Sequence record: NC_054926.1
DNA from: Escherichia phage vB_EcoM_OE5505
Reading direction: 5' to 3' (one strand)
Length of the DNA stretch: 64,000 nt
The notes beneath the pieces were generated by a model. The model worked only from the letters and a program-made list of their open reading frames with translations, had not been told where the DNA came from and ran no database searches. This document shows positions 10,305 through 41,628 of the stretch, piece by piece. Position 1 is the stretch's first letter, and each line of letters opens with the position of its first letter. The translations under genes were made by a program, and so were the position numbers.

Positions 10305-12118
10305 TGGTGCTTAACCCTATGCATGATTTCTTTATTTTTGCCGAGATTAAATCCGCGTTCGTTCGGATTTCCCAAATAACCACATGTTCTTCTTATTGTG
10401 TTCATCTTTTTAGGATCAGTTTCTCCACAAATAAAACAAACAAATCCGTTTTCAGTAGGAGTCATTTCATGGGTACTTCCACATGTAAAACATTTATCTA
10501 CTGGCATATTAACACCAAAATAATCTAAATGTTGTGCAGCATAATCCCAGACAGCCTCAAGACCTTTTAGGTTATTTTTCATATCAGGAAGTTCAACATA
10601 AGAAATGTGACCACCTGTCGCAATGAAATGATATGGCGCTTCACGAGAAATTTTTTCAAACGGAGTAATATTTTCTTCTACTGAAACGTGGAAACTATTA
10701 GTGTACCAGCCTTTATCGGTAACATCTTTTACACTTCCATATTTTTCTGTATCAAGTTTACAGAAGCGATAACAAAGGTTTTCAGCAGGAGTCGAATATA
10801 AACTAAAAGCAAACCCAGTTATTTCAGCCCACTGTTTAAGACGAGCATTCATTTTAGTTAAAATTTCTTGTCCAATATCACGACCGACAAGAATATTCAA
10901 TTCATGAATACCAATGTATCCTAAAGACACTGAACTTCTACCGTTTTTAAATAACTCAATTATGTCGTCATCAGGTTTAAGACGAACCCCGAATGCACCT
11001 TCTTGGTAAAGAATAGGAGCAACAGTCGCTTTAACTCCTTTTAAGGAACTAATTCTACACATCAAAGCTTCAAAACATAAATCCATTCGCTCATTGAACA
11101 ATTCAGTAAATTTCTGTTCATTGAACTGTGTTCCAATATAAGAATCCAACGCAATACGAGGAAGATTCAGTGTTACAACACCAAGATTATTACGTCCATC
11201 AAGAATTTCATTACCGGTTGAATCTTTCCACGCACTCAAGAAACTGCGGCAACCCATTGGAGAAACAGGAATAGATGAGCCGGTGATAGCTTTATTGTTC
11301 TTAGCTGAAATAATATCAGGATACATCCTTTTGCTTGCACACTCTAGAGCAAGCTGCTTAATATCATAGTTCGGATCGTCTTTATAAAGATTAACACCTT
11401 CTTCAACGAACATAACAAGCTTAGGGAAAATAGGAGTTATCCCATCACGACCGAGACCTTTAATACGATTTTTCAGAATTGCTTTCTGAATCATTCGTTC
11501 AGTCCAGTCAGTTCCCGTACCAAATGTAATTGTTACAAAAGGAGTCTGTCCGTTTGAACTAAAGAGAGTATTTACTTCATATTCATAAGCTTGGAATGCA
11601 TCGTATACATCTTTTTCTGTTTTAGATTGAGCATAATTTAACGCATCAGCGATTTGCCATTTTTCTGCATCCTCAATATGTTTTGCATAGGTGCGTTTAA
11701 CATAAGGAGAAAGTACTTTATCTACATTCGCAAAAGTCGTTCCGCCGTATTGGTGAGAAGCAACTTGCGCAGTAATTTGTGCCATAATTGCAGTAGCAAC
11801 GCCAATTGATTTAGGAGTTTCAATCTGTGCATTACCAAGCTTAAATCCGTTTTCAAGCATTCCTTTTAAATCTACTAAACAACAATTAGTAAATGGAAGA
11901 GCAGGGGAATAATCAATATCATGGAAATGAATAATTCCGCTTTCATGCGCTTTCATAATAAAAGACGGGACCATATTTTTGGCAATGTGTTTAGACACAA
12001 TACCAGCCATAAGGTCCCGTTGAGTTGGAAAAACACGAGAATCTTTATTAGCATTCTCGTTTAAAAGGTCTTTATTAGTTTTATGAATCAATCCTTCAAT
12101 TTCTTTTTCAATTGTCAT
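10301..12118 (-). CDS. nrdD: Anaerobic ribonucleoside-triphosphate reductase NrdD (uninterrupted)
   Basis: 605 aa continuous ORF; C-terminal glycyl-radical motif RRTCGYLG and Zn-ribbon CFTCGS...CFICGE. Confidence 0.95.
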   Translation of the reverse strand: MTIEKEIEGLIHKTNKDLLNENANKDSRVFPTQRDLMAGIVSKHIAKNMVPSFIMKAHESGIIHFHDIDYSPALPFTNCCLVDLKGMLENGFKLGNAQIETPKSIGVATAIMAQITAQVASHQYGGTTFANVDKVLSPYVKRTYAKHIEDAEKWQIADALNYAQSKTEKDVYDAFQAYEYEVNTLFSSNGQTPFVTITFGTGTDWTERMIQKAILKNRIKGLGRDGITPIFPKLVMFVEEGVNLYKDDPNYDIKQLALECASKRMYPDIISAKNNKAITGSSIPVSPMGCRSFLSAWKDSTGNEILDGRNNLGVVTLNLPRIALDSYIGTQFNEQKFTELFNERMDLCFEALMCRISSLKGVKATVAPILYQEGAFGVRLKPDDDIIELFKNGRSSVSLGYIGIHELNILVGRDIGQEILTKMNARLKQWAEITGFAFSLYSTPAENLCYRFCKLDTEKYGSVKDVTDKGWYTNSFHVSVEENITPFEKISREAPYHFIATGGHISYVELPDMKNNLKGLEAVWDYAAQHLDYFGVNMPVDKCFTCGSTHEMTPTENGFVCFICGETDPKKMNTIRRTCGYLGNPNERGFNLGKNKEIMHRVKHQ

Positions 12119-12588
12119 TTTAAACTCTTTCTAAGCTGCTTCTTAAATGAAGCTATTAATTGTGTTTTGGTGTCAGATTCATTATATTCAAATCCTCTTT
12201 GAAGCATCTCAGCCATCATTTCCTCTTTTCCTAAACGAGAAAATTCCTTTGATTTATCTCCAACAAAGTTAGGGTGAATATTGTTTTGGGTGTAATCGGA
12301 TTTTAAATAAGTAAGTAAATTTTCTAACCATTCAAGATAATCAACACCTTGTCCCTTTAAGCCAGAACGATTAAATTTATGTTTCATTTGACCTTCTGCC
12401 GCATTACAGAGATTACAGAGCAATCCACGTACCTTTCCAGCTTTCGGTCCATTTAATTCATGGTCATGGTCAAGATGATTAGCTTGAACATCAGGATTTA
12501 ATTCTCGTTGGCAAATTAAGCATTTACCATTTTGTGCATTATAAAATTTTTGTTTTTCTTCTTTGTATAATTTGCCAGTCAATAACAT
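12115..12588 (-). CDS. 49: Endonuclease VII (Holliday junction resolvase) gp49
   Basis: 157 aa; CLICQRELNPDVQANHLDHDHELNGPKAGKVRGLLCNLCN motif region. Confidence 0.93.
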   Translation of the reverse strand: MLLTGKLYKEEKQKFYNAQNGKCLICQRELNPDVQANHLDHDHELNGPKAGKVRGLLCNLCNAAEGQMKHKFNRSGLKGQGVDYLEWLENLLTYLKSDYTQNNIHPNFVGDKSKEFSRLGKEEMMAEMLQRGFEYNESDTKTQLIASFKKQLRKSLK

Positions 12589-12630
12589 AATAAAACCCTT
12601 ACCTTAAATAGATAAGGGTATTTATTATTT

Positions 12631-12807
12631 TCAAGTATTGTAAAACATTCGATGCAATCGCTTATATTGCCGAATCATCTTTTTAGTAGGACGAGAATAA
12701 GTTCCTACACAAGTGGTCATATTAGGGTCTGTAGAATTTCCTTTAATAAAAAGTTTCCAAACCTTACCACCATTTAACTTTTCAGTATAAATCAATTCAG
12801 TTTTCAT
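12631..12807 (-). CDS. Small hypothetical protein (58 aa), below ORF-track threshold
   Basis: ATG at 12807 overlapping upstream stop (TAATG); MKTELIYTEKLNGGKVWKLF... Confidence 0.3.
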   Translation of the reverse strand: MKTELIYTEKLNGGKVWKLFIKGNSTDPNMTTCVGTYSRPTKKMIRQYKRLHRMFYNT

Positions 12808-13271
12808 TAAAATGCTCGGTCAGAAAAAGAAATTTGAGTTTCAAGCCATTCAATATATTCTGCCGCAGCTTGCATCAAATTTCCTTCATAACCATCGTTA
12901 TTTTCTTGCGCAGCCAATTTAGCTAATGCATATGAAATGCGTTCACCTTGAAAAGCGGCTTTAGGTTTATGAATAGCTTGATCAACTCGTTCTACAACTT
13001 CTTCAATTTCGCCATTTTCTACTGATTCAGTATTCCACAAGCACCAATACGTAATTGGCTTATCATAGATGTTAATAATCTTTCCGTCATAAAGTTCAAT
13101 TTCAATAATTCCAGTATCAGGTTCTATATCATCTTCGCATTCTTTTGCAAGTTCACGAACTTTAAAGACAGTACCTGCACTAAGTTCCGGCCAGTAATTA
13201 CACAGCCCTTTATCAGCACGATTAATTCTAAACCACTTATCTACTGTAATCATGTCCCATCTCCATATCAA
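12807..13271 (-). CDS. Hypothetical protein (154 aa)
   Basis: ATG start; acidic protein. Confidence 0.55.
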   Translation of the reverse strand: MIWRWDMITVDKWFRINRADKGLCNYWPELSAGTVFKVRELAKECEDDIEPDTGIIEIELYDGKIINIYDKPITYWCLWNTESVENGEIEEVVERVDQAIHKPKAAFQGERISYALAKLAAQENNDGYEGNLMQAAAEYIEWLETQISFSDRAF

Positions 13272-13687: not shown

Positions 13688-13903
13688 TTACCCCAATTTA
13701 ACCATGCAATCGCCATATTTCCATTTAGAAATAGACTTTTCACCGTTAGAATAATAAACTTCGAGTTTAGCGCGGCCATTTTTAATTTGAATAACCTTTG
13801 CTGTCATCAAAGTTCCATACCCATAGTAAACTGCAACCTCATCACCCACATATACCGCGCTTCCGCGGTAGTCATGGATATAATCAGTTCCTTCAAGCAT
13901 CAT
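13688..13903 (-). CDS. Hypothetical protein (71 aa)
   Basis: ATG start, ATGA overlap with nrdC stop. Confidence 0.5.
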   Translation of the reverse strand: MMLEGTDYIHDYRGSAVYVGDEVAVYYGYGTLMTAKVIQIKNGRAKLEVYYSNGEKSISKWKYGDCMVKLG

Positions 13904-14163
13904 TTAAAGTATTCCCGCAATTGGTCAAATCCACCAATATGACTTCCATCAGGAGCAAATACCTGAGGCATCGTCAATCCGATTTGAGTATCACGACCCA
14001 GTTTAGTCAGAAGCTCAGCGATTTTCTCATCATCAAAAACACCTTTTTCCGGCATAATATTGATAAATTCAAACGGCTGTTTCTTCACAGTCAAGAGACG
14101 TTTTGCATTATCGCAATACACACATTTGTGGATGTTGCTATCATAACCATATACTTTAAACAT
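13900..14163 (-). CDS. nrdC: Thioredoxin/glutaredoxin NrdC
   Basis: 87 aa; MFKVYGYDSNIHKCVYCDNAKRLL... with CVYC active site; matches recalled T4 NrdC. Confidence 0.93.
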   Translation of the reverse strand: MFKVYGYDSNIHKCVYCDNAKRLLTVKKQPFEFINIMPEKGVFDDEKIAELLTKLGRDTQIGLTMPQVFAPDGSHIGGFDQLREYFK

Positions 14164-14164
14164 A

Positions 14165-14407
14165 TTATTCCTTAATTCCTAGTACTTGTTTAAAAATCTC
14201 GTCATAATCAAGACTTTGGCCCGTTTGTTCTTTATGTTTGTATATAATATCACTTACTTCTGATAGCATATTTTTATATGAACGAGTTAAAGCAGATTTA
14301 AGAACGCTATATCTATCAGGAAATTTACCATGTTCATTATAATAAGCTATTGCTAATTCACGGACTGCTTTTTCAGCAATCTCCATATATTCTTTACGCT
14401 TGGTCAT
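14165..14407 (-). CDS. Hypothetical protein (80 aa from ATG)
   Basis: ORF-track start is TTG; first ATG at 14407. Confidence 0.45.
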
Positions 14408-14711
14408 TTTCTTCTCTCTCAAATCGGTGTTTGCAATGACGACATTTATATTCAAGCTCTGGTTTACGCCAGTTAATCAATTGTACCTGTTCAGTACCAC
14501 ATTTTGGACAGTTCGGAACATTCTTAGAAGCTCTTTCGCGGCGTTCAACCATAACCATAATGGCATCCCAAGCAGGAGGTTTAAAGTCTAGATCGTCACA
14601 GCCATGAATCTTTCCACGCATTTCCAGATCGTCTTCTTCGCCAGCCATAATAATTTTAATTAGACTAGAATTACTTGAAGCTGCAATATCTTCTAATAAG
14701 CGCTTTTTCAT
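14394..14711 (-). CDS. Zn-ribbon protein (105 aa)
   Basis: CPKCG...CRHCKH four-cysteine motif. Confidence 0.5.
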
Positions 14712-15637
14712 TTCAATACCTCAATAGCATTACGTAAACCATTTGCTTTTGCATTAAGAGCTTTTAACAATTTAGTGTGTTCGGCAATCTGGGCTTCAAC
14801 TTCAATCAAACGAGCATTGAGATATTCGCGTTCTTCGCTCAGGTTATCAACCTTTTCTACTTTAGGTTCTTTTACAACTGGCTTATATGTATTAGGGTTC
14901 TTCAGTTTAATTAGAATGCGTGAACTGTATAACATTGAACCATTATCTTCGGTTTCGTCATACATTTCTACTACGTCCATAATTTTTAGCATCATGCGGA
15001 GTTTATAAGACAATGAACGAATAGTTTTGTTGTGCTTATTAATTTCTCTAGCGTTCATGGTGCCGAGATTACGTGAGTAATAATAAGGAACCTGGATATT
15101 AATTAATACTGATGAACCACCTGGCTTGTGTGTTACTTCATCAGCAATAACCCAGTCCTTAACATGAACTGTATTTGTACGGTCATCGCCCGCGGTAAAT
15201 AGTTTGCGAGCATGCTTAAAAAGCATATTCACTTGGTCATTGAATTGACAAGCAAATTTATCAGCAAATTTAGTTTCAGGAATGGTAGAAAACCAATCAG
15301 CCAAATGAGTCTTTTTAACATCATTAACAATAGTAAATTCAACCAAATCGGTTATAGATGTCTCAGATTTAATGAAGCTCGGCTTCATAAAGTTTTTAAT
15401 GTTCTCATGAGCTACAGTAGAAGATAACATACGAGAACGTTTAAACCATTCAAGCAAATTGCCTAACGAATGAGAATAAGCGTTTTGAGTATCTTTACAG
15501 ATATGATTTTCCTGACCAACATATTGAAGGAAATCACGAAGAATATTATTGATTACTGCTCTGTGCCCGATCTGATAATTACGGTGTTTAGTAATAAGAC
15601 TGTCAAAATAATCAATATAATGTTTACGAGTTTTCAT
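14708..15637 (-). CDS. Hypothetical protein with C-terminal coiled coil (309 aa), paralog family member
   Basis: ATG start; C-terminal heptad region [42 protein letters not shown]; MDVV motif shared with neighbour. Confidence 0.6.
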   Translation of the reverse strand: MKTRKHYIDYFDSLITKHRNYQIGHRAVINNILRDFLQYVGQENHICKDTQNAYSHSLGNLLEWFKRSRMLSSTVAHENIKNFMKPSFIKSETSITDLVEFTIVNDVKKTHLADWFSTIPETKFADKFACQFNDQVNMLFKHARKLFTAGDDRTNTVHVKDWVIADEVTHKPGGSSVLINIQVPYYYSRNLGTMNAREINKHNKTIRSLSYKLRMMLKIMDVVEMYDETEDNGSMLYSSRILIKLKNPNTYKPVVKEPKVEKVDNLSEEREYLNARLIEVEAQIAEHTKLLKALNAKANGLRNAIEVLK

Positions 15638-15689
15638 ATTCTTCTCACTTGGTTAATGGTTTATACTCCGAGCCATCCTTGGCTTTAAA

Positions 15690-16691
15690 TTACTTAATTA
15701 ACTGTAAAGCTTGTTCAAGACGATCAAGACGATTAACGGATTCTTCCCAAATCTTTTTAGCCTGCTCATATTCTTTCTGCGCTTTATTAGAAATTTCTAG
15801 AACTTCTTTATAAGCTTTTTCTAGTGCAATAACTTCTGGACGAATTTCTACTGGTTCAGGCGAATCGTCAAGACATTCCATTAGTTCCTCAAGGGTAGTT
15901 TCTTCTTTAGGAGTATTCACAATTTCATCACATTTTTGTTGGTAAATTTCTTTATCAGTCGGTGAGTACGCACACTTTACTTCACGGAGACTAACTACAA
16001 TTTTATATCCTTCCCAACCGCATATATTCTTAAAAGGATAAGTATGAATATTTTCTACTGTTTCCATACAAAGTAATGCGGTCTCTAACTGACGAGTTAT
16101 ATCGCTAGCAATTGAGAAAAATTTATTAATGTTCTTTTGATTAGCTTCTGGTGTAAAAAATTCATAATTCACAAAAATAGCTGCTTTATTTTTATCAAGC
16201 TCATATTCTTTTATGATAATCATATCAGAAGCCCAAGGATGGATTTGACGATAATCACCATAGCATAATTTAGAAGCTGATTTTAGAATTTGCTTCTTGA
16301 AAAGTCTAAAATTACTAATCCAACGACGAGTAAAAATATTCTCAGGGTCTTCTTTATTATTAAGATGATAAGAATTAACATCACCGAACCAACTGTATCC
16401 TACTACATCTTTAGTTCGTTTAATTTCTTTCCCAAATTTACCAAGAATATCTTGATTAACTAAATATGAAAGAAGACGAGAACCTTTAAAAGTTTCCTTA
16501 ATATCATCTTTATATTCGCGACTAGAAATTTTATGAACTTCATGAATAAATTTGCTTGAAGAAACAATACTTGCATCAATATTATTGAGCCATTGATTGA
16601 TAATGGAAATAACACTATTCTGACTAAACACAGGTTTAACTTTATCATTAATAACGCTATTGAATGATTTGATATATTCGTTACGAGTCAT
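15690..16691 (-). CDS. Hypothetical protein with C-terminal coiled coil (333 aa), paralog family member
   Basis: ATG at 16691 downstream of early promoter 16720..16749; shares RRWISNF.LFKKQILKSASKL motif with next gene. Confidence 0.6.
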   Translation of the reverse strand: MTRNEYIKSFNSVINDKVKPVFSQNSVISIINQWLNNIDASIVSSSKFIHEVHKISSREYKDDIKETFKGSRLLSYLVNQDILGKFGKEIKRTKDVVGYSWFGDVNSYHLNNKEDPENIFTRRWISNFRLFKKQILKSASKLCYGDYRQIHPWASDMIIIKEYELDKNKAAIFVNYEFFTPEANQKNINKFFSIASDITRQLETALLCMETVENIHTYPFKNICGWEGYKIVVSLREVKCAYSPTDKEIYQQKCDEIVNTPKEETTLEELMECLDDSPEPVEIRPEVIALEKAYKEVLEISNKAQKEYEQAKKIWEESVNRLDRLEQALQLIK

Positions 16692-16719
16692 ATTAATCTC
16701 CTCAGTAGAAAGTAAGAAC

Positions 16720-16749
16720 ATTATACCACATCCTTGTGGCAAAGTAAAC
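16720..16749 (-). promoter_or_regulatory. T4-type early promoter (GTTTAC - 18 nt - TGGTATAAT)
   Basis: Minus-strand motif upstream of ATG 16691. Confidence 0.6.
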
Positions 16750-17768
16750 TAGTTTAGTGCATTTAGTGCATTGTTCAGTTTAGAACGTTGCTTCGTAAGA
16801 TTTTTGACTTTTTCTTGAGCTTTTTCTAGCATCTTTTCAGCTTCTAGCACTTCATTAGTTGCTTTAACGAGTTCATCATCTACTGCCTTGATAGACTTCT
16901 CAATCGCATCCGCGTGCCATTTTTCAACAGGTTTAAGACTCGGATTTTCAATAGAAAGAAAATTCACTTTATTGAATTTCCATGCATCTTTATTACCTGA
17001 GCTATACATCCAAAATTTAGGATCGTTTGATGAGCAATTAGATAAATTTAAGTTATCTTGCACTTCCTGCTTTTTCTCTTGCGGGACTTCGTCCTTTCTC
17101 AAAAAATCGTATTTAAATGAAACGATCATATCAAGTTCATACGTTGTTGTATGTTCCCAATTTCGCTCAAAATGAGGTAAAATCTTAGACTGAACCGCGG
17201 CAACTACATCCATATACTTAAATGCTTCTGTCAACTGTGATTTAAGGCATTCACAAATTGAAAGAGAATTTTTTGTATTAGGTTTAAAGCTAATTCGTGC
17301 AGTTCTGTTATTTTCTTTTAATGGTCTTACTTCCATCTGAAGAGTATAACCATCAAATTTCAGATTCTTTAAGTTAATATCAGAACCTTTTAATCGACTA
17401 GCCGTCGACAAAATTTGCTTTAATTGTTTACGGAATAGAGCAATAAATCTCCATTCAAGACGGTAATGATTTGGATTAAAAAATCCTGTTGATAAATCAA
17501 CCTTACTCTGACCAACGCCTTGAACAAATAGAGGATTTTTATAATCAATAGTTTTACAGAAATCGGTGAGCTGTTCGCGAGCAGTCATTTGCGTAATATA
17601 TCCAGCTTTATCAAAATGTCGCAGCCATTCACTGCTATTCATATACTTAAAGTGAATGGAACTATTAACTCTATCAGGGTCTAAATTATTTTGGCACAAA
17701 AATGTCATAACATCACGAGTATAGCTGGCATTACGAACCATATCTTCAATTTGAGAACGAGTTTTCAT
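16749..17768 (-). CDS. Hypothetical protein with C-terminal coiled coil (339 aa), paralog family member
   Basis: ATG start; RLEWRFIALFRKQLKQILSTASRL motif; C-terminal coiled coil. Confidence 0.6.
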   Translation of the reverse strand: MKTRSQIEDMVRNASYTRDVMTFLCQNNLDPDRVNSSIHFKYMNSSEWLRHFDKAGYITQMTAREQLTDFCKTIDYKNPLFVQGVGQSKVDLSTGFFNPNHYRLEWRFIALFRKQLKQILSTASRLKGSDINLKNLKFDGYTLQMEVRPLKENNRTARISFKPNTKNSLSICECLKSQLTEAFKYMDVVAAVQSKILPHFERNWEHTTTYELDMIVSFKYDFLRKDEVPQEKKQEVQDNLNLSNCSSNDPKFWMYSSGNKDAWKFNKVNFLSIENPSLKPVEKWHADAIEKSIKAVDDELVKATNEVLEAEKMLEKAQEKVKNLTKQRSKLNNALNALN

Positions 17769-17776
17769 GGTGTTCC

Positions 17777-18664
17777 TTAAGATTTAAGTAAATCGACAAT
17801 TTTAATTAACTTTTCACGCTCAGATTTAGCTTTACTACTCAGTCCAGATAGTCTGAAAATTTCATCATCATATTGTTGAATAGAAATATTCAGCTCTTCA
17901 ATCTGTTTATTAAAATAATCAATTTGTTCAGAATGTTTTTCGTTACTACGAACTGGTACAGGTTTTGTAGGCAATTTAGTTGAACTGGATTCATCCGGGC
18001 GATAAATTAAAATACAATTTGAACCAATCGGGCATTTAGCACCAGACACATATTCTAGTGTTCCAGCTTCTTTTAAAACTTCAAAAGCTAAACAGAGATG
18101 ATGACCCATATTGACATAATCTGTAGAGTGAGCTCTGATATAATAATCATCTCCACGAGTACTAAATTTAAAGCATTTAAGGTCTTCTGTATTATTAGTT
18201 TTAAAAATCATTTGTTTATCTAGACCTTTAGCTAATCGAGCACCTAATGCTAATAATCGTCGTTGATTTTCCCATAAATCCGCAATCATTTGATCGAATG
18301 ACAATTTCGGCATTAGTCGACCATAAAGGTCATATCCTTTATTATAATTGCGAAGAATTTCACTCGCGTTAATACGAGACAACGCTCCAATTTTATTAAG
18401 GGCTTTCATGATGCGATTAGATAAACTCATTCCAGACCCGTTTGTTCGCTGTAAATGTTTTTCTAATCCAAATCCAATATCAACTTTAAATTTATCTAAA
18501 ATTTTGGCATGAACATCTCTGTCAATAACATTCAAATCCAAAGTTGGGTTAAATCTATGAAAAAATTTATCTGGCTCTCCACGACGAAGTACAGTCCATT
18601 CATTTAATTTTTTATTAACTAAAGATTTAATTACTGCGTTGATATTATTAATTACTACTGACAT
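17777..18664 (-). CDS. Hypothetical protein with C-terminal coiled coil (295 aa from ATG)
   Basis: ORF-track start is TTG; ATG at 18664 with GAGGAAA SD; C-terminal coiled coil. Confidence 0.55.
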   Translation of the reverse strand: MSVVINNINAVIKSLVNKKLNEWTVLRRGEPDKFFHRFNPTLDLNVIDRDVHAKILDKFKVDIGFGLEKHLQRTNGSGMSLSNRIMKALNKIGALSRINASEILRNYNKGYDLYGRLMPKLSFDQMIADLWENQRRLLALGARLAKGLDKQMIFKTNNTEDLKCFKFSTRGDDYYIRAHSTDYVNMGHHLCLAFEVLKEAGTLEYVSGAKCPIGSNCILIYRPDESSSTKLPTKPVPVRSNEKHSEQIDYFNKQIEELNISIQQYDDEIFRLSGLSSKAKSEREKLIKIVDLLKS

Positions 18665-18675
18665 ATTTTCCTCAC

Positions 18676-19080
18676 TCAATTTTCAATTTTACTAAATACA
18701 CAGAATATGATGGAAAGGACTATATAAGCACCGCATACAGATTGAACTAATACCATTCCAAAGAACCAAACAATATTATCAAACAATGTCTGTTTTACGT
18801 CGAAAGGACGTAAACTTACAGTAATATTATCACCTTTTTCTATTGATGAATACATCTCTGGTGAAATATATTCACTAAATCTATAACCGTCTTTGAGTTC
18901 ATATACGGCAATAAACGATAAACTAGACCCCTTTCCTTGAGTTCCTGTAAGGGTATTAACTACAGTAACATCATAATCTTTATAATGCATATAATCATTA
19001 ATTGCGTAATAACCATATGCAATTACTATACATAAACAACATATCAATAAATTCAATCTTTTAATTATCAACTGTTTCAT
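18676..19080 (-). CDS. Membrane protein (134 aa, two predicted TM segments)
   Basis: N-terminal LLICCLCIVIAYGYYAI and C-terminal FFGMVLVQSVCGAYIVLSIIFCVF hydrophobic segments; middle-type promoter upstream. Confidence 0.55.
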   Translation of the reverse strand: MKQLIIKRLNLLICCLCIVIAYGYYAINDYMHYKDYDVTVVNTLTGTQGKGSSLSFIAVYELKDGYRFSEYISPEMYSSIEKGDNITVSLRPFDVKQTLFDNIVWFFGMVLVQSVCGAYIVLSIIFCVFSKIEN

Positions 19081-19109
19081 AATAATCTCAATTAAAAGGG
19101 CTTAGAACC

Positions 19110-19134
19110 ATTATACCATCCTTGGTATAAAGCG
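19110..19134 (-). promoter_or_regulatory. Candidate MotA-dependent middle promoter (CGCTTTA box, 12 nt, TGGTATAAT)
   Basis: MotA-box-like GCTTTA positioned about -30 relative to TATAAT; upstream of membrane protein gene. Confidence 0.4.
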
Positions 19135-19135
19135 G

Positions 19136-19663
19136 TTATGCGAGTACCGTCTTTAACCGTTCTTCAAACTTCCGAAGAGTATTTTGGCGTTCAGCTCTTT
19201 GCTTTTTGTAAGTTTCAATACGCTCTGAAATGAGAGTGTATCGTTCATTTACTGATTCTTTCATAAAATCAGGAATTTCACGAGAAGCTTTAATCTCATC
19301 AAATTTATCAATAACAGCTTGCTCTTCAGCAATTAAGTTATCATACATCAAAATATCTTTCTTGATGAACTCAATATCTTCTTGAGTTACACGAGATAAT
19401 TTAGATGCTTTATCCTTTTTGTACTGTTCGTTAGTATCACGAGACCAGTGTAATGTACGATTTTTATTCGTATTCTTGTAAATTTCTACAATACCAATCT
19501 CATCGATAATAACGATCCAATTCCAACGAGATTTGTAAATTTGTCCTCCGTCAACCGTGATTTCACCTCCGATTGAGATGTCATTAAAGAACTTGCTTTG
19601 TGCTTCTGATTTAAATTTACCATCGTTGTAATTTACCAAGTTGAAAATATCTTTAGCGTTCAT
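19136..19663 (-). CDS. Hypothetical protein (175 aa from ATG)
   Basis: ATG at 19663 with GGAGG SD; ORF-track N-terminal extension is promoter read-through. Confidence 0.55.
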   Translation of the reverse strand: MNAKDIFNLVNYNDGKFKSEAQSKFFNDISIGGEITVDGGQIYKSRWNWIVIIDEIGIVEIYKNTNKNRTLHWSRDTNEQYKKDKASKLSRVTQEDIEFIKKDILMYDNLIAEEQAVIDKFDEIKASREIPDFMKESVNERYTLISERIETYKKQRAERQNTLRKFEERLKTVLA

Positions 19664-19691
19664 TTTCTGTTCCTCCGTAGTTGATAGTTGT

Positions 19692-19721
19692 ATAGTACCA
19701 CAGAGGAACGGTCTTGTAAAC
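19692..19721 (-). promoter_or_regulatory. Early promoter with conserved TGGTACTATACAACTATCAAC module (copy A)
   Basis: GTTTAC - 18 nt - TACTAT followed by conserved leader; one of four copies. Confidence 0.6.
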
Positions 19722-19723
19722 AA

Positions 19724-20026
19724 CTAAAAGAAACTTCTTTCACAATTTTTTCCACTGAACCACGCGCTCACTGCTTTCTTAGTCTCAGGAGCAGTGTTAT
19801 CCATAAACCATTCAAAGGCAGCCTTTTTATGATTCTGGAGGGCTTCTCGGGCTTTAATCTGCTCACGGTCTATTAACACTAACATATGAGCCTTTCTTGT
19901 CACCAGGGGCTTCTTATGATTTTTTGAATACTCCCAATCATTTGTCCATCGCATCGTTGTTGCGAACTGAAATACAGCTTCTTTAATTTTAGTTTCGTAA
20001 ATTTCACGAGCCTTTGAGTATAACAT
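19724..20026 (-). CDS. Hypothetical protein (100 aa)
   Basis: ATG at 20026 with GGAGG SD. Confidence 0.45.
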   Translation of the reverse strand: MLYSKAREIYETKIKEAVFQFATTMRWTNDWEYSKNHKKPLVTRKAHMLVLIDREQIKAREALQNHKKAAFEWFMDNTAPETKKAVSAWFSGKNCERSFF

Positions 20027-20127
20027 CACTACCTCCATTTACCAGTTTAATTCTAGTCATCTTTTTGATGGCAGTCCATATAATCTATTTCTGAACTGTC
20101 TTTTTGTCATAGAAGGCCTCTCATGAA

Positions 20128-21096
20128 TTATTTCAGAAGAGTAACCTCAGCGATTTCTTCCCAACCGTTTTTGTCGGTCATAATAAAGTCAGCAAGATAA
20201 AGTGCAGTACGCAGTGAAACATTGCGTAAACGATTAACATTGACTTTCATCCATGATAATGCTTTATAAGTTTCTTCATCAGAAAGACCGCGTTTTTGCA
20301 TCATGTCAGTTGAAAGAATAACATCTTCAACCCTGACCATAATTTCTTCATTAGTGTGAACACCCAAATCTAAATAAACTGAGCGGGACACTAATGCTTG
20401 TAAATGTGGAGCAAGTTTAGTACCACGATCTAATTCGCGGTCAATATCAACGTTTGTGATAAAAACAATCGTTCCTTTAAATTCAAACTCACGCTCAATG
20501 CCTTTTTCTTCTAAGTAAGAAGATGCGGTGCTCCAGCAGACTTTACGGGTCTCTCCGGTGTCCAGAGCAGCTTTCAGAAGATTAAGAATGTCCATATCAG
20601 AGAAAACATCCACATCATCAATCAAAAGGACAGAATTCTCTTCACGATTATTCCAAAGCTGTTCATAAAGACCGATACCAGAGATTTTACCATTAATGCT
20701 TTTATATTCAATGTATCCAATATCATTTGCTTTATTTAAAGCTTTATCTAAAGAATACGTTTTACCAATACCTGCCGCACCAGAGATAATTAATGAACGA
20801 ATGTTTCCGTTAATAATACCATTCGTCATCATTCCCATAACATTAAATCTTTTATTAATGCGGGTTTTCATATCTTCATACGATTCTTTAACTTCTTCAA
20901 CTTTTACACCATCATATGAAATGTCTGATTTGTAAACCCAAACACCGCGACGTTTACCGTCAATTTCAACAAAAACTTTACCATCTCCTTGTGCATCTAC
21001 CGGAGCATTATCTGGGAACCATTCGCCTAAGAGCTCAAAAGTTCCAGAGATTTCTTTACCGAAGTAGATACCCTTATTGATAGTTACAGTTTTCAT
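20128..21096 (-). CDS. P-loop NTPase (AAA-like), 322 aa
   Basis: Walker A GAAGIGKTYS, Walker B VLLIDDVD; ATG at 21096 with GGAG SD downstream of promoter 21131..21160. Confidence 0.6.
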   Translation of the reverse strand: MKTVTINKGIYFGKEISGTFELLGEWFPDNAPVDAQGDGKVFVEIDGKRRGVWVYKSDISYDGVKVEEVKESYEDMKTRINKRFNVMGMMTNGIINGNIRSLIISGAAGIGKTYSLDKALNKANDIGYIEYKSINGKISGIGLYEQLWNNREENSVLLIDDVDVFSDMDILNLLKAALDTGETRKVCWSTASSYLEEKGIEREFEFKGTIVFITNVDIDRELDRGTKLAPHLQALVSRSVYLDLGVHTNEEIMVRVEDVILSTDMMQKRGLSDEETYKALSWMKVNVNRLRNVSLRTALYLADFIMTDKNGWEEIAEVTLLK

Positions 21097-21130
21097 TTTA
21101 TTCTCCAAATCCGTATCAGTTGATAGTTGT

Positions 21131-21160
21131 ATAGTACCATAAAGCTTTATGCTTGTAAAC
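21131..21160 (-). promoter_or_regulatory. Early promoter with conserved module (copy B)
   Basis: Same -10/leader module as copy A. Confidence 0.6.
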
Positions 21161-21190
21161 AGTTTTGTGAAAAATTTTTGAAATAAAAAA

Positions 21191-21210
21191 AGGGAGCCCG
21201 AAGGCTCCCT
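21191..21210 (-). terminator. Rho-independent terminator (AGGGAGCC-UUCG-GGCUCCCU + U7)
   Basis: 8-bp GC-rich stem, UUCG loop, followed by TTTTTTTATTT on minus strand. Confidence 0.7.
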
Positions 21211-21211
21211 A

Positions 21212-22225
21212 TCATTTATAATAACTTCGGTGGTTTTCAAGATAGACCTTCTCAAGGAAGTCATCCCAGAAACTCATGTCTACTGTTTTAGGCATACCAT
21301 TCTTAGAAGCTTCAGTAGATGCTGCTTCTACTTGATCGACCACATCTTCCAAAAACTCTTGAACTGTTTTAAATGGATGTTTACCCAACTTCACGTCGAG
21401 AATAAATGGAGCATCTTGGAGTGGATAAATCAAGTCGCCAGTTTTGTAAATTTCCAATAGTTGAAGTCCACCACGACAAGCATGACTTAGTGCTTTCCAA
21501 TCAATACCTTCATTAGCTTCGGCCTTACGAGCACGTTCACCATATTCAGCATCTAATTTGTTCAGTGACTGCTTAAGCTCAATAAGAGAAAGCGTTGTCT
21601 GATATTTACGACCCAGCACTGTATAGAACGTTTGTGGACCTGTTTTCTCATGATTATGGAACACCCATTCACAGAATTCGTTTTCTGGAAGACGATGCTT
21701 AATATCTTCAACTTTAGTACGACGCTGCTTAATGGAACCGTCTTCTTGGTAATCAACCCATTGCTCAGGGATTTGATTAACTACTTTCAATACATCACGT
21801 AATGCAGCCAAACGAGAACCCTTGACGCCGTATTTAGAAGCTTGCTTGCGGACATATCCTAAATAGGATTTCATGTTAGTCGTATAAAAACGAGAACGGT
21901 TGTCTTGAATAAACTTCCACACATCAGGCAAATCAGATTTAACCACTAGTTCAGGTGGAGTGTGAAGCATATCCAATGCTACAGTTTCACCATCTGCTGC
22001 TAATTTAAAGAAATATTTAAGACTGTATAGTTCATGGTCAATATCATCTTTAGTGTTTTTAGATGATGTGTTGTTAGTGTTTTTACTCATGTGCTCTTTG
22101 ACATTTCCGATAAGAATATCACGAGCAGGAGGAACAAAAATTTCTTTAAAATCTACATCAGATTCTGGGGTAGAAGTTCCATAAAGATGACTACCAAAAT
22201 AGCTTTTCATTACTGTTTTCATCAT
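21212..22225 (-). CDS. Nucleotidyltransferase-fold protein (337 aa)
   Basis: N-terminal motif FGSHLYGTSTPESDVDF (GS-x10-DxD) typical of Pol-beta-like nucleotidyltransferases. Confidence 0.6.
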   Translation of the reverse strand: MMKTVMKSYFGSHLYGTSTPESDVDFKEIFVPPARDILIGNVKEHMSKNTNNTSSKNTKDDIDHELYSLKYFFKLAADGETVALDMLHTPPELVVKSDLPDVWKFIQDNRSRFYTTNMKSYLGYVRKQASKYGVKGSRLAALRDVLKVVNQIPEQWVDYQEDGSIKQRRTKVEDIKHRLPENEFCEWVFHNHEKTGPQTFYTVLGRKYQTTLSLIELKQSLNKLDAEYGERARKAEANEGIDWKALSHACRGGLQLLEIYKTGDLIYPLQDAPFILDVKLGKHPFKTVQEFLEDVVDQVEAASTEASKNGMPKTVDMSFWDDFLEKVYLENHRSYYK

Positions 22226-22692
22226 TCAGCCTTATATTCAATAACAGGACATACTTTAGCTTTACGAGCTTTTAAAAATTCAACGATAATCGATTTCTTG
22301 GGTTGAATAGGAGGTAAACCTTTATACGCCCTATCAATATTTTCTATGTGTAAAGCATAATCCTTTTTCCATTTATAATCTTTATAATCTTTATATTTTT
22401 CATGCAAATGCGCAGGAATAACAAATGAACCGATAATAAGTAAAACAACCAAAAGCGCAAGTATAAATGCTGATGGAAGAAGAGTCCATAAACTACCGAA
22501 AATAAGCCAACGTTGTAGGCTTTCTGCACAAATAATTGTTAGACCTGCGAGTATAGTACATCCGAAAAAAGAAACGAAAAATGTAGGGATAACAATAGAC
22601 CAAAAGTATGCACACAGTGTCTTAGGTCGTTTCCATTCGTCGTTAAACAGTTTGAATAATTTATAGTGCCAAGAGTTTTCATTAATAATCAT
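22222..22692 (-). CDS. Membrane protein (156 aa)
   Basis: Multiple hydrophobic segments; ATGA overlap with upstream gene. Confidence 0.55.
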   Translation of the reverse strand: MIINENSWHYKLFKLFNDEWKRPKTLCAYFWSIVIPTFFVSFFGCTILAGLTIICAESLQRWLIFGSLWTLLPSAFILALLVVLLIIGSFVIPAHLHEKYKDYKDYKWKKDYALHIENIDRAYKGLPPIQPKKSIIVEFLKARKAKVCPVIEYKAE

Positions 22693-22694
22693 AA

Positions 22695-23216
22695 TTATCC
22701 TTTCATTGAAGGTGTAACAGTTGTTAAATACTTAATCATAGCTTCAGCTTCTGATTTTGATAATGAAATTTCTTCATTGTTTTGACGAATAGAAATAAAA
22801 TCCGGATGACGGTCACCACCAGCTTTTAAAACACACATATAAGTATCAGCTTCGCCTTCAATATTTGAAATGATTGAAGCAGTTCCACATGAATGCGGTT
22901 TTTGATAAATCAATACAGCTTTTCTTCCACCATTTGACTGTTCATAGGCTTTTAATACATCAAGCAAATCAGTTCTTTTATCAATAGCTAAGATGTTATT
23001 TTCATCTTCAATATTAAATCCTTCGGATACTTCATAAAGAGTTACCCATAAATCACCGATGTCAATAACAGCATTTACTTTTCCACGGCTTTCAAGAGTA
23101 TGACAAATTTTCTTGATTTCGTCATAACTCATTTTAATAATATCATCTCCTTGACTAAGGAAGATGTCATTTTTAAATTCAACACGAATTAAACCACTTC
23201 CACTTGAAATAAACAT
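22695..23216 (-). CDS. Hypothetical protein (173 aa), paralogous to next gene
   Basis: Shares GFNIE and C-terminal YL..V.P.M motifs with 23223..23756. Confidence 0.5.
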   Translation of the reverse strand: MFISSGSGLIRVEFKNDIFLSQGDDIIKMSYDEIKKICHTLESRGKVNAVIDIGDLWVTLYEVSEGFNIEDENNILAIDKRTDLLDVLKAYEQSNGGRKAVLIYQKPHSCGTASIISNIEGEADTYMCVLKAGGDRHPDFISIRQNNEEISLSKSEAEAMIKYLTTVTPSMKG

Positions 23217-23222
23217 ATTTCC

Positions 23223-23756
23223 TCACTTTGAAATCATAATTGGAATGACAGAATCAAGATAAGTCTTTAGCGCAATAGCTTCGTCTTTGGTAAATGTGAC
23301 AATATGTGCTCGAAAATCGTCAATTTGACGAATAGATACTACATCTCCCTCTTCATAGCATTTTGACACATTTAAAATAGTTTCATCATTCTGATTGCAA
23401 GCGTTAGTAATAATAGCATTGCAATTTTTAAACCATTTTAAACTGTGTTTTCTTTCATTAGAATAATAAAAATATTTAATCTTATCTATAAAACTATCCC
23501 AATGGATAACTGATAAGCATATTGACTCGCTTTCAATATTAAATCCTGGGCATGAAGAATAAAAATGAATTTTATGCTCATCATTAATGCTTACAATTTT
23601 ATCAGTATAAGGATTTTCAATTTGGGTTAAATGAATGATTTCACTAGGCGTAAAATATAGCATATCGTCTTCTTGTGTCAAACGATACATATTATTTACT
23701 TTTTCTATAGCCAATTCACCAAAAAGTGAACTAACTTCTAATACTAATCGTTTCAT
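23223..23756 (-). CDS. Hypothetical protein (177 aa from ATG)
   Basis: ORF-track start GTG; ATG at 23756 with AAGGA SD. Confidence 0.5.
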   Translation of the reverse strand: MKRLVLEVSSLFGELAIEKVNNMYRLTQEDDMLYFTPSEIIHLTQIENPYTDKIVSINDEHKIHFYSSCPGFNIESESICLSVIHWDSFIDKIKYFYYSNERKHSLKWFKNCNAIITNACNQNDETILNVSKCYEEGDVVSIRQIDDFRAHIVTFTKDEAIALKTYLDSVIPIMISK

Positions 23757-31527: not shown

Positions 31528-32001
31528 TTATTTGAACGATTTAACGTACTGAATAGAACCTTTACTATTTACAAAGGCAATTTTACCATTTTTATTATAC
31601 ATTGTAGCAGTACGTTGATAGCCATAAGTTTGTTTACCAGATTGATAACCAACTAATGCAAAATTATCTTCACCCATTTTATTCTGTTTAGCGCGAATGC
31701 GTTCATGACCATGTGCCATAAGAACCTTAGCATCACCAGTTGCAATGGATCGACGAGTTTTTTCATCTTCAACTGTATTAACAAAGTCGTCAAATGAATC
31801 AAATTTAGCATGAGATTTATTATACAGTTTTCCATCTACTGCATAATTATATCCCTGTACATCCATCTCAACTTCTGTACCATCATCCAATACAGCAGTA
31901 ATTTTTTGACCTTTTTTAAATTTCAAAAGATCAGTAAAAGATTCAGCAATAATTTGAGAATTAATAGCTGCTTCAGTGATAAATTCTTGATATGTTTTCA
32001 T
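31528..32001 (-). CDS. Internal (capsid-targeted) protein, ipIII-position (157 aa)
   Basis: N-terminal capsid targeting sequence MKTYQEFITEA; located immediately upstream of e as ipIII is in T4; early promoter 32056..32085. Confidence 0.7.
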   Translation of the reverse strand: MKTYQEFITEAAINSQIIAESFTDLLKFKKGQKITAVLDDGTEVEMDVQGYNYAVDGKLYNKSHAKFDSFDDFVNTVEDEKTRRSIATGDAKVLMAHGHERIRAKQNKMGEDNFALVGYQSGKQTYGYQRTATMYNKNGKIAFVNSKGSIQYVKSFK

Positions 32002-36087: not shown

Positions 36088-36650
36088 TTATTTACCTAGT
36101 TTACTTATTATAGCTTCTGCAGCAGCTTTTAGCTTAGATGCAGTGTTAATACGATTTTTAATTTCAGTATACGCATCGCCAAGAACATCAAGGCTATCAG
36201 AATAAACACTTACACTATTGCGTTCGCTATTTGAAATAGAACCTTTAGTTTTGCGGTCAAAATCGGTGTACACGTCTTGAAGATCGCGGGCTGCCTTCTT
36301 TGCATCATCCAATGCATCAAGAGCTTTATTCAAAGCATTAACGTATTTTTAGTGTCGAACATATTCTTAGAAATTTTAACAGGTGCGCGTTCAGGAGTAG
36401 CTAACACAGATTTAGGAACCTGAGCGCCAGATGCCAATTTCTTAGAAATTTTGAAAAATGCTTTATTGAATTTATTTTCTTGACTCATTGTAAAAGAACT
36501 ATTATCGATGTTGTACATTTCAATAGCTTTAGCTTTCCACTTAAGAAAATCGCCGCGGTCTTTTGGGTCCAATTGGAAGAATACTTTAGTAAGATCTGCT
36601 TCAGATGGTAATTTTGCTGCTTCGGTTAAAAATTCGGCATAGGTTTTCAT
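36088..36650 (-). pseudogene. Internal-protein-like gene with capsid-targeting leader, apparently split by a frameshift at an A5 run (ORFs 36330..36650 and 36088..36333)
   Basis: N-terminal part starts MKTYAEFLTEAAK (ATG 36650); downstream ORF has no ATG (TTG only); adding one A at 36336..36340 fuses both into a ~186 aa protein. Confidence 0.45.
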
Positions 36651-41060: not shown

Positions 41061-41294
41061 TTATTTTTTACGAAAAATTGATTTATTTTCTGCTGCCCAT
41101 TTTTCAATAACTGCAGCAGGACCAGTAACAACAATTTTATCACCGTAATCTTCTGCGGCGAGTTGACCGAAATTATCTAATGCATCACGAAGAACTCCAT
41201 GAGGCATTTCACCCATTTTATCTTTCTTGCCAGTGTAAATAAACTCAACTTTTACATCAGCAGTTTCAGCAATAAATTCTTGGTAAGTTTTCAT
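41061..41294 (-). CDS. Internal protein I-like (capsid-targeted), 77 aa from MKTYQEFIAE
   Basis: Canonical capsid targeting sequence MKTYQEFIAE at ATG 41294; early promoter 41329..41358. Confidence 0.7.
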   Translation of the reverse strand: MKTYQEFIAETADVKVEFIYTGKKDKMGEMPHGVLRDALDNFGQLAAEDYGDKIVVTGPAAVIEKWAAENKSIFRKK

Positions 41295-41370: not shown

Positions 41371-41628
41371 TTATTTTAAATCTTCTAATCGTTTCTTCAT
41401 CTTAGAACCATTTTTAGCAATTTCTCCTGCATCGGAGCATAATGCTAAAAGTGCTTTAACTTTAGTTTGGTCTCCTTTAAAAGATGAAGGATCGACCGCA
41501 GCAGCAAGTTCTTTAATACGAGAGAAAAGACGCTCAGCTTCAGCTAAAGCCATTCCAAGCTTTACTTCCATACCGTGGGAAGATTCAGTGATAGTAGTTT
41601 TTGTAGCAAACTCTTTGAAAGTTTTCAT
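41371..41628 (-). CDS. Internal-protein-like small protein (85 aa)
   Basis: N-terminus MKTFKEFATK resembles capsid targeting sequence; early promoter 41660..41689. Confidence 0.55.
   Translation of the reverse strand: MKTFKEFATKTTITESSHGMEVKLGMALAEAERLFSRIKELAAAVDPSSFKGDQTKVKALLALCSDAGEIAKNGSKMKKRLEDLK

Follow-up and report, generated by a model that had tools for sequence, protein, structure and literature searches.

The T4-type genes nrdC.3 to nrdC.6 as a probable ancient family of candidate inhibitors of host immunity

Four neighbouring genes of T4-like phages, nrdC.3, nrdC.4, nrdC.5 and nrdC.6, most likely encode non-enzymatic, oligomerising inhibitors of host immunity. We reached this reading, to which we assign a probability of about 0.6, by analysing a 64,000-nucleotide stretch of Escherichia phage vB_EcoM_OE5505 (record NC_054926.1; hereafter the window), where the four genes lie in tandem on the minus strand. 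A counter-defence role has been shown genetically for nrdC.5 and would extend to the other three. T4 is the best-studied lytic phage, and about half of its genes are without an assigned function. The genes described here are already known as T4 open reading frames (ORFs), one of them with a published counter-defence role, and they do not constitute a new kind of system. What is added is the union of the four in one superfamily, a defined architecture and the nomination of nrdC.3, nrdC.4 and nrdC.6 as testable anti-defence candidates.

The phage is a Tequatrovirus, a T4-like coliphage, and the four array proteins are exactly its gp091-094. The initial annotation, made from the sequence alone, had placed four consecutive minus-strand genes of 295-339 amino acids (aa) at 14708-18679 and had suspected conserved T4-type genes rather than a new insertion. 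Both points held: ORFs of 309, 333, 339 and 295 aa are found there, and by order, size and identity (61, 91, 91 and 97%) they are the orthologues of T4 nrdC.3, nrdC.4, nrdC.5 and nrdC.6 (Table 1). When compared with the T4 reference annotation, the minus-strand genes between nrdC (13900-14163) and nrdC.11 (21212-22225) were found to be nrdC.1-nrdC.11 in T4 order, and the genes flanking the array are 97-100% identical to those of T4. T4 NrdC.3, NrdC.4 and NrdC.6, the direct counterparts of the window genes, are uncharacterised early ORFs. The nrdC.5 gene lies between nrdC.4 and nrdC.6 as it does in T4, the position expected of the DUF7235 orthologue; about 9% of the residues differ between its product and T4 NrdC.5, and these are clustered in the N-terminal helices and in the low-confidence linker of the model described below. 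The nrdC.3 gene of the window is a divergent allele, 75% identical to that of the Mosigvirus PhAPEC2 versus 61% to T4 NrdC.3. At the DNA level, the 3972-base four-gene region had matches in 655 phage records, of which 461 covered at least 80% of it; the closest was phage ASO78A, at 98.8% identity. The start of nrdC.4 was set at the ATG at 16691, as in T4, with GAGGAG ahead of it, while the mechanically called ORF opens at a TTG at 16742. For nrdC.6, an alternative TTG start at 18679 would give a protein of 300 aa.

The functional evidence comes from genetic work on T4. When T4 was evolved on toxIN cells, one of the clones, which carried compensatory deletions, no longer plated on the strain ECOR17 (Srikant, Guegler and Laub, eLife 2022, PMC9391042). 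Deletion of dsr1 from ECOR17 allowed this clone to plate again, cloned dsr1 protected MG1655 against it, and plasmid-expressed T4 nrdC.5 restored the infection of Dsr1 cells by the T4 deletion mutant (PMC9391042). The counter-defence role of nrdC.5 came by chance from an evolution experiment. Dsr1 contains a SIR2 domain and is believed to deplete NAD+; its sensor, which it has in common with Avs7, is reported to be triggered by a phage major capsid protein (2026 paper, PMC13581612). Our literature search returned no publication on how NrdC.5 works and only incidental mentions of nrdC.3, nrdC.4 and nrdC.6. A functional analogue of nrdC.5 is DSAD1, a phage protein that inhibits DSR2, likewise a SIR2-domain, NAD+-depleting defence, and that is not described as an enzyme (PMC10973363). 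DSAD1 belongs to a different phage group and faces a different defence protein than Dsr1; DSAD1 and NrdC.5 are likened here by function, and no relationship is claimed.

BLASTP among the four proteins detected a single pair, nrdC.3 and nrdC.4 (24% over 273 aa, E 3e-6), and profiles were therefore needed. Family alignments were built from database homologues and from the orthologous loci of Gaprivervirus, Dhakavirus and Mosigvirus, and they were compared by hhalign with the last 60 residues cut off, so that the C-terminal coiled coil could not contribute. Under these conditions nrdC.3 matched nrdC.4 with a probability of 98.4% (E 8e-15), nrdC.4 matched nrdC.5 with 91.6% (E 8e-7, 139 columns), and the combined nrdC.3 and nrdC.4 profile matched nrdC.5 with 86.6%. 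The similarity outside the coil is thus significant. The two internal motifs that had been noticed earlier as common to at least three of the genes, W/F..F......L..A.RL and L...L..MDVV, aligned in register in every profile comparison. From these profiles, nrdC.3, nrdC.4 and nrdC.5 almost certainly descend from a common ancestor. The tandem paralogous family proposed at the outset is real, though ancient: pairwise identity among the paralogues is 17-24%, and a search for DNA-level repeats among the four genes gave short chance matches only. The duplications must be old because no such repeat is left, and a recent duplication is ruled out on the same ground.

The position of nrdC.6 was less clear-cut. 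Without the coil, its profile matched the single families with probabilities of 0.3-11% and the pooled family with 70% (E 4e-5), a borderline value. Its N-terminus is devoid of the M(K)TR motif, and the protein is missing from the 23 matches (E <= 1e-3) that a combined nrdC.3, nrdC.4 and nrdC.5 profile gave among 1.84 billion representative proteins. These observations would be explained if nrdC.6 had converged on a small alpha/beta fold with a C-terminal coiled coil, the array then consisting of three relatives and an unrelated neighbour. We consider this unlikely in view of several other results. With full-length profiles, nrdC.6 matched the family at 90.6% (E 1.3e-6), and the aligned part, residues 82-144 of nrdC.6 against 45-126 of nrdC.5, lies inside the globular domain; the same two motifs aligned in three independent comparisons. 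Furthermore, a hidden Markov model (HMM) of the family built without nrdC.6 was run against 281 ORFs of at least 80 aa from seven loci and retrieved, beside the known members, three nrdC.6 proteins (E 8e-6, 3e-3 and 5e-3) and nothing more up to E 10. The predicted order of secondary-structure elements is the same in nrdC.6 as in the nrdC.5 model. Foldseek searches of BFVD linked the nrdC.5 model directly to the nrdC.6 protein of phage JS10 (E 3.4e-4, probability 1.0), and six targets were common to the nrdC.5 and nrdC.6 models (E <= 1.4e-3), namely uncharacterised proteins of 300-370 aa from Cronus, Mineola, Acj61, PM2, Merlin and CBH8. We conclude that nrdC.6 very probably shares ancestry with nrdC.3-5. 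The inclusion of a fourth gene in the family, as first suggested, accordingly stands, yet the evidence for it is chiefly structural.

The T4 reference sequence (NC_000866) carries a 1-nucleotide deletion in nrdC.6 (fetched T4 locus 12067-12894; about 17870 in the window), reading GAGCTG-ATATT against GAGCTGAATATT. The resulting frameshift removes the coiled coil and leaves a protein of 275 aa, while the shifted frame still encodes an intact tail. In T4T and other phages nrdC.6 has 295-296 aa, and the copy in the window is full length; the frameshift in the reference comes from either a mutation in the strain or a sequencing error.

Database families were assigned by full-length profile matches for nrdC.3 (phrog_1435, E 2.5e-116), nrdC.4 (the same PHROG, E 7e-166) and nrdC.6 (phrog_2257, E 8.3e-153), the homologues of nrdC.3 bearing PF26897 and those of nrdC.6 PF26899. 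The nrdC.5 protein matched Pfam PF23882 (DUF7235) over residues 1-339 with 415.2 bits versus a cutoff of 30 and is also filed as phrog_2351. Although filed apart in the searched databases, phrog_1435/PF26897, DUF7235 (phrog_2351) and phrog_2257/PF26899 form one superfamily specific to T4-like phages, and this union of nrdC.3-6 may be previously undescribed. A cluster look-up placed nrdC.4 (333 aa) in the 90%-identity cluster of nrdC.5 (339 aa) despite an identity below 20%, probably a bookkeeping artefact. The family and nrdC.6 HMMs found no further paralogue among the ORFs of the window. As a fifth member, nrdC.8 was rejected: its profile probability is 0.5-0.7%, the likeness is confined to the coiled-coil tail, and the family HMM misses it.

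All four proteins were expected from the initial annotation to end in a heptad-rich segment. This was examined by scoring hydrophobic residues at positions a and d in a single unbroken register, with p values from shuffles of the same segments. Each of the four tails kept an unbroken register and exceeded the shuffles (p 0.021 to 0.0005). At the C-terminus the register is identical among nrdC.3, nrdC.4 and nrdC.5, and the family tail has a shared ending, L..A(L/I)..LK. AlphaFold2 models were available for nrdC.5 (from a 28-sequence alignment) and nrdC.6, and long C-terminal helices are present in both. The nrdC.5 model (mean predicted local distance difference test score, pLDDT, 76.7) comprises a confidently predicted globular part at 1-225, a stretch of very low confidence at 227-275 and a single helix at 281-338 (pLDDT about 90); in that of nrdC.6 (pLDDT 77.5), a low-confidence stretch at 227-241 separates the globular part from two helices, at 242-271 and at 277-294. 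The order of elements common to both is alpha-alpha, alpha-alpha, beta-beta, alpha, beta-beta, low-confidence stretch and long helix. In both nrdC.5 and nrdC.6 the predicted architecture thus runs from an alpha/beta globular domain at the N-terminus through a linker of low confidence to a long C-terminal helix. Invariant or near-invariant columns of the superfamily are F70 and V189 in the hydrophobic core, T3 and R4 at the N-terminus, and L331 and A334 in the tail. The 175-aa nrdC.8 (19136-19663) likewise ends in a heptad helix (p = 0.005), and the nrdC.5 model gave a weak Foldseek match to a 175-aa protein of Klebsiella phage KPV15 that may be an nrdC.8 homologue.

No known functional family, and no enzyme family, was found for the four proteins in Pfam, NCBIfam and PADLOC scans. 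In PADLOC, the sole match was a weak one between BrxC and the coiled-coil region of nrdC.4 (residues 258-331; E 0.005), and the null result of PADLOC says little about anti-defence proteins because its models describe host defence proteins. In the PDB, searches by sequence and by profile returned no relative and no solved structure for the family; the tails alone gave weak matches, to coiled-coil peptides. As no enzyme family was recovered and the invariant positions are those of the hydrophobic core, T3-R4 and the tail, a binding protein fits these sequences, and not a catalyst.

We also considered the possibility that the proteins are thioredoxin-like or accessory factors of nucleotide metabolism, as suggested by the 'thioredoxin' labels in GenBank and by the position near nrdC, nrdD and nrdG. 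Yet, no thioredoxin or redox family was matched in Pfam or NCBIfam, none of the four sequences contains a CxxC motif, neither the predicted fold nor the best structural matches are thioredoxin-like, and the label follows the nrdC.x locus names, which denote map position only. A thioredoxin or glutaredoxin identity is therefore out at the level of both sequence and fold, and this explanation is almost certainly wrong. In hundreds of GenBank records the whole series nrdC.1-nrdC.11 (14165-22225) is labelled 'thioredoxin', apparently through propagation from the locus names.

The structural matches of the globular domain included tail terminator and tail completion proteins (lambda gpU, SPP1 gp17-like, DUF3168), at 2-13% sequence identity. 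Unlike these, the nrdC proteins have early promoters, are dispensable, and contain additional helices at the N-terminus as well as a linker and a coiled coil; membership in this group, judged by sequence family and virion role, was rejected. The fold has to be considered generic because the dimerisation domains of RNA polymerase alpha and Rpb11, as well as de novo designed alpha/beta proteins, score equally high. As modelled, the globular domain would be a generic two-layer alpha/beta sandwich, and the resemblance to virion neck proteins gives no more than a lead. One scheme built on this lead supposes that the proteins are early decoys, in which a virion neck-protein fold of the tail terminator or completion type is fused to an oligomerising coil, each paralogue or allele occupying the sensor of a different pattern-recognition immune protein of the host before the late structural proteins appear; nrdC.5 and Dsr1 would be the first example, with nrdC.3, nrdC.4 and nrdC.6 directed against further immune systems. 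We regard this scheme as very unlikely.

Another candidate identity was that of the packaged internal proteins of T4. It was rejected, since nrdC.3 and nrdC.5 share just MKT with the capsid-targeting sequence, MKTYQEFIxE with an (L/I)-x-E cleavage site, and an MKT start is also present in nrdC.10 and nrdC.11. Elsewhere in the window, four minus-strand ORFs at 31528-32001, 36330-36650, 41061-41294 and 41371-41628 start with this targeting sequence or a variant (MKTYQEFITE, MKTYAEFLTE, MKTYQEFIAE and MKTFKEFATK, respectively) and are probably the internal-protein genes of the phage, to judge from these starts. T4 ipIII, which encodes an internal protein, is also a counter-defence gene.

The family is small and was found only in T4-like phages (Straboviridae and allied), and members were present in the nrdC region at every locus fetched. 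The full-length matches of the large profile search measured 285-342 aa and all had the same tail. Two of the new subfamilies were placed by tblastn in T4-like phages of Klebsiella, Enterobacter and Edwardsiella, and Foldseek matches extended the family to phages of Acinetobacter, Erwinia, Pectobacterium, Serratia, Citrobacter and Aeromonas. Copy number is four in Tequatrovirus, three in Gaprivervirus and Dhakavirus (nrdC.4-like, nrdC.5-like and nrdC.6), three in Mosigvirus (nrdC.3, nrdC.5-like and nrdC.6) and, as detected, at least one each in Marfavirus and Jiaodavirus. Divergence was measured in 11 Tequatrovirus genomes, those of the window, T4 and nine more phages, with the ratio of nonsynonymous (dN) to synonymous (dS) substitution rates as an index of constraint (Table 1). 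Relative to their neighbours, nrdC.3-5 are under relaxed or diversifying constraint, and there is no gene-wide positive selection. At nrdC.2 and nrdC.3 (14394-15637) dS reached 0.48-0.58, versus about 0.1-0.25 in the neighbours. Because dS is high there and nrdC.3 of the window is nearer to Mosigvirus than to T4, the sequences suggest that old allelic lineages have been exchanged by recombination, between genera, at nrdC.2/nrdC.3.

Rearranged members were also encountered. One database protein (P0056) is a deletion chimera, nrdC.5(146-272)::nrdC.3(129-309), with FNKVN/FNDQVN microhomology at the joint; homologous recombination between paralogues was ruled out as its origin, the junction joining non-equivalent positions at a short microhomology. 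In Shigella phage Sf25 (P0093), nrdC.6 bears an 83-aa internal tandem duplication, and in another database protein (P0210) the nrdC.5 coiled coil is fused to an N-terminal part of about 120 aa that is unrelated.

Two T4-type early promoters were located with the T4 consensus GTTTAC, N13, TGTGGTAtaAT, one just upstream of nrdC.4 and one upstream of nrdC.8, nrdC.7, nrdC.6 and nrdC.5 (Table 1), and both sites carry a T4 early promoter annotation in phage ASO78A. The genes nrdC.3-6 are dispensable on laboratory hosts; in a T4 genome-reduction study, the large fragments that viable phage had lost included the nrdC.1-6 block (PMC9825161). The host-interaction or anti-defence module proposed in the initial annotation is supported for nrdC.5 by the genetics of the T4 allele (PMC9391042). 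For nrdC.3, nrdC.4 and nrdC.6 we infer such a role from homology, early promoters, dispensability and raised divergence, and they are good candidates for immune blockers because nrdC.5 disarms Dsr1. In the mechanism that we propose, the proteins would be made early in infection, and the globular domain would bind a host immune protein, Dsr1 in the case of nrdC.5, and this variable domain would set the target. The coiled coil would most likely drive self-association, leading to oligomerisation and avidity, and the target would be neutralised before the late structural proteins of the phage can trigger it.

It is also conceivable, though somewhat unlikely, that nrdC.5 alone serves in counter-defence and that the other three act in host takeover, in the regulation of phage or host macromolecules or in superinfection exclusion, the scaffold being an oligomeric binding platform. 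Paralogues at 17-24% identity often differ in target and role, the constraint on nrdC.6 is far stronger than that on nrdC.3-5, and the literature on nrdC.3, nrdC.4 and nrdC.6 consists of the incidental mentions referred to above. However, all four genes are dispensable on laboratory strains, and a copy number that varies by genus, together with alleles swapped between genera, is the usual pattern for accessory host-range genes rather than for core takeover functions. Several points weigh against inhibition of host immunity as the common role of the four. The functional data are limited to nrdC.5; they are genetic and concern the T4 allele (91% identical to that of the window). Homology is no guarantee of like function at such divergence, and the heptad tail could pack against a partner protein rather than self-associate. 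The sequence link of nrdC.6 is borderline without the coil, and this protein was not retrieved in the large profile search. Finally, dN/dS exceeds 1 in no gene, and nrdC.6 is conserved (97%, dN/dS 0.08), unlike an arms-race gene.

If nrdC.3, nrdC.4 and nrdC.6 belong to one family with nrdC.5, they would represent three candidate inhibitors of other E. coli immune systems, and their relatives in the T4-like phages of Klebsiella, Acinetobacter, Erwinia, Serratia and Aeromonas would likewise be candidates. With scaffold and tail constant and one domain variable, the family amounts to a natural experiment from which the retargeting of a single design may be learned. The findings have a bearing on host-range prediction for therapeutic T4-like phages, and the analysis corrects the 'thioredoxin' label in many GenBank records.

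Table 1. Genes, C-terminal segments and promoters of the array, with positions in the window, and divergence across 11 Tequatrovirus genomes. Occupancy denotes the fraction of heptad positions a/d filled by hydrophobic residues versus that of the other positions of the same segment.
Feature	Coordinates	Strand	Description	Mean aa identity	dN/dS
nrdC.3 orthologue	14708..15637	minus	309 aa ORF; T4 identity 61%; most variable member	78%	0.29
nrdC.4 orthologue	15690..16691	minus	333 aa ORF; T4 identity 91%	89%	0.24
nrdC.5 orthologue (DUF7235)	16749..17768	minus	339 aa ORF; T4 identity 91%	93%	0.17
nrdC.6 orthologue	17777..18664	minus	295 aa from ATG; T4 identity 97%	97%	0.08
nrdC.8 to nrdC.11				98-99.6%	0.03-0.09
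nrdC.3 C-terminal heptad helix	14711..14836	minus	aa 268-309; a/d occupancy 0.83 vs 0.33, p = 0.021
nrdC.4 C-terminal heptad helix	15693..15839	minus	aa 285-333; a/d occupancy 0.86 vs 0.26, p = 0.0015
nrdC.5 C-terminal long helix	16752..16928	minus	aa 281-339; a/d occupancy 0.94 vs 0.20, p = 0.0005; AlphaFold2 helix
nrdC.6 C-terminal helices	17780..17941	minus	aa 242-295; a/d occupancy 0.80 vs 0.18, p = 0.0005; AlphaFold2 helices
T4-type early promoter	16720..16749	minus	just upstream of nrdC.4; aGTTTAC-N13-TGTGGTATAAT; 10/12 matches plus TG extension
T4-type early promoter	19692..19722	minus	upstream of nrdC.8, nrdC.7, nrdC.6, nrdC.5; GTTTAC-N13-TGTGGTACTAT; promoter scan

Among the neighbouring genes, nrdC.10 (20128-21096) gave sub-threshold matches to P-loop AAA/STAND-like NTPases (AAA_14, 23.5 bits versus a cutoff of 27; nSTAND3), and nrdC.11 (21212-22225) matched the RlaP-type nucleotidyltransferase family (PF10127). 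These two genes are strongly conserved (dN/dS 0.03-0.09), in contrast to nrdC.3-5. Neither T4 mobD, a homing endonuclease gene compared at 22226-23225, nor T4 49.3 had a tblastn match in the window; the place expected for 49.3 is occupied by a 71-aa DUF7205 ORF at 13688-13903.

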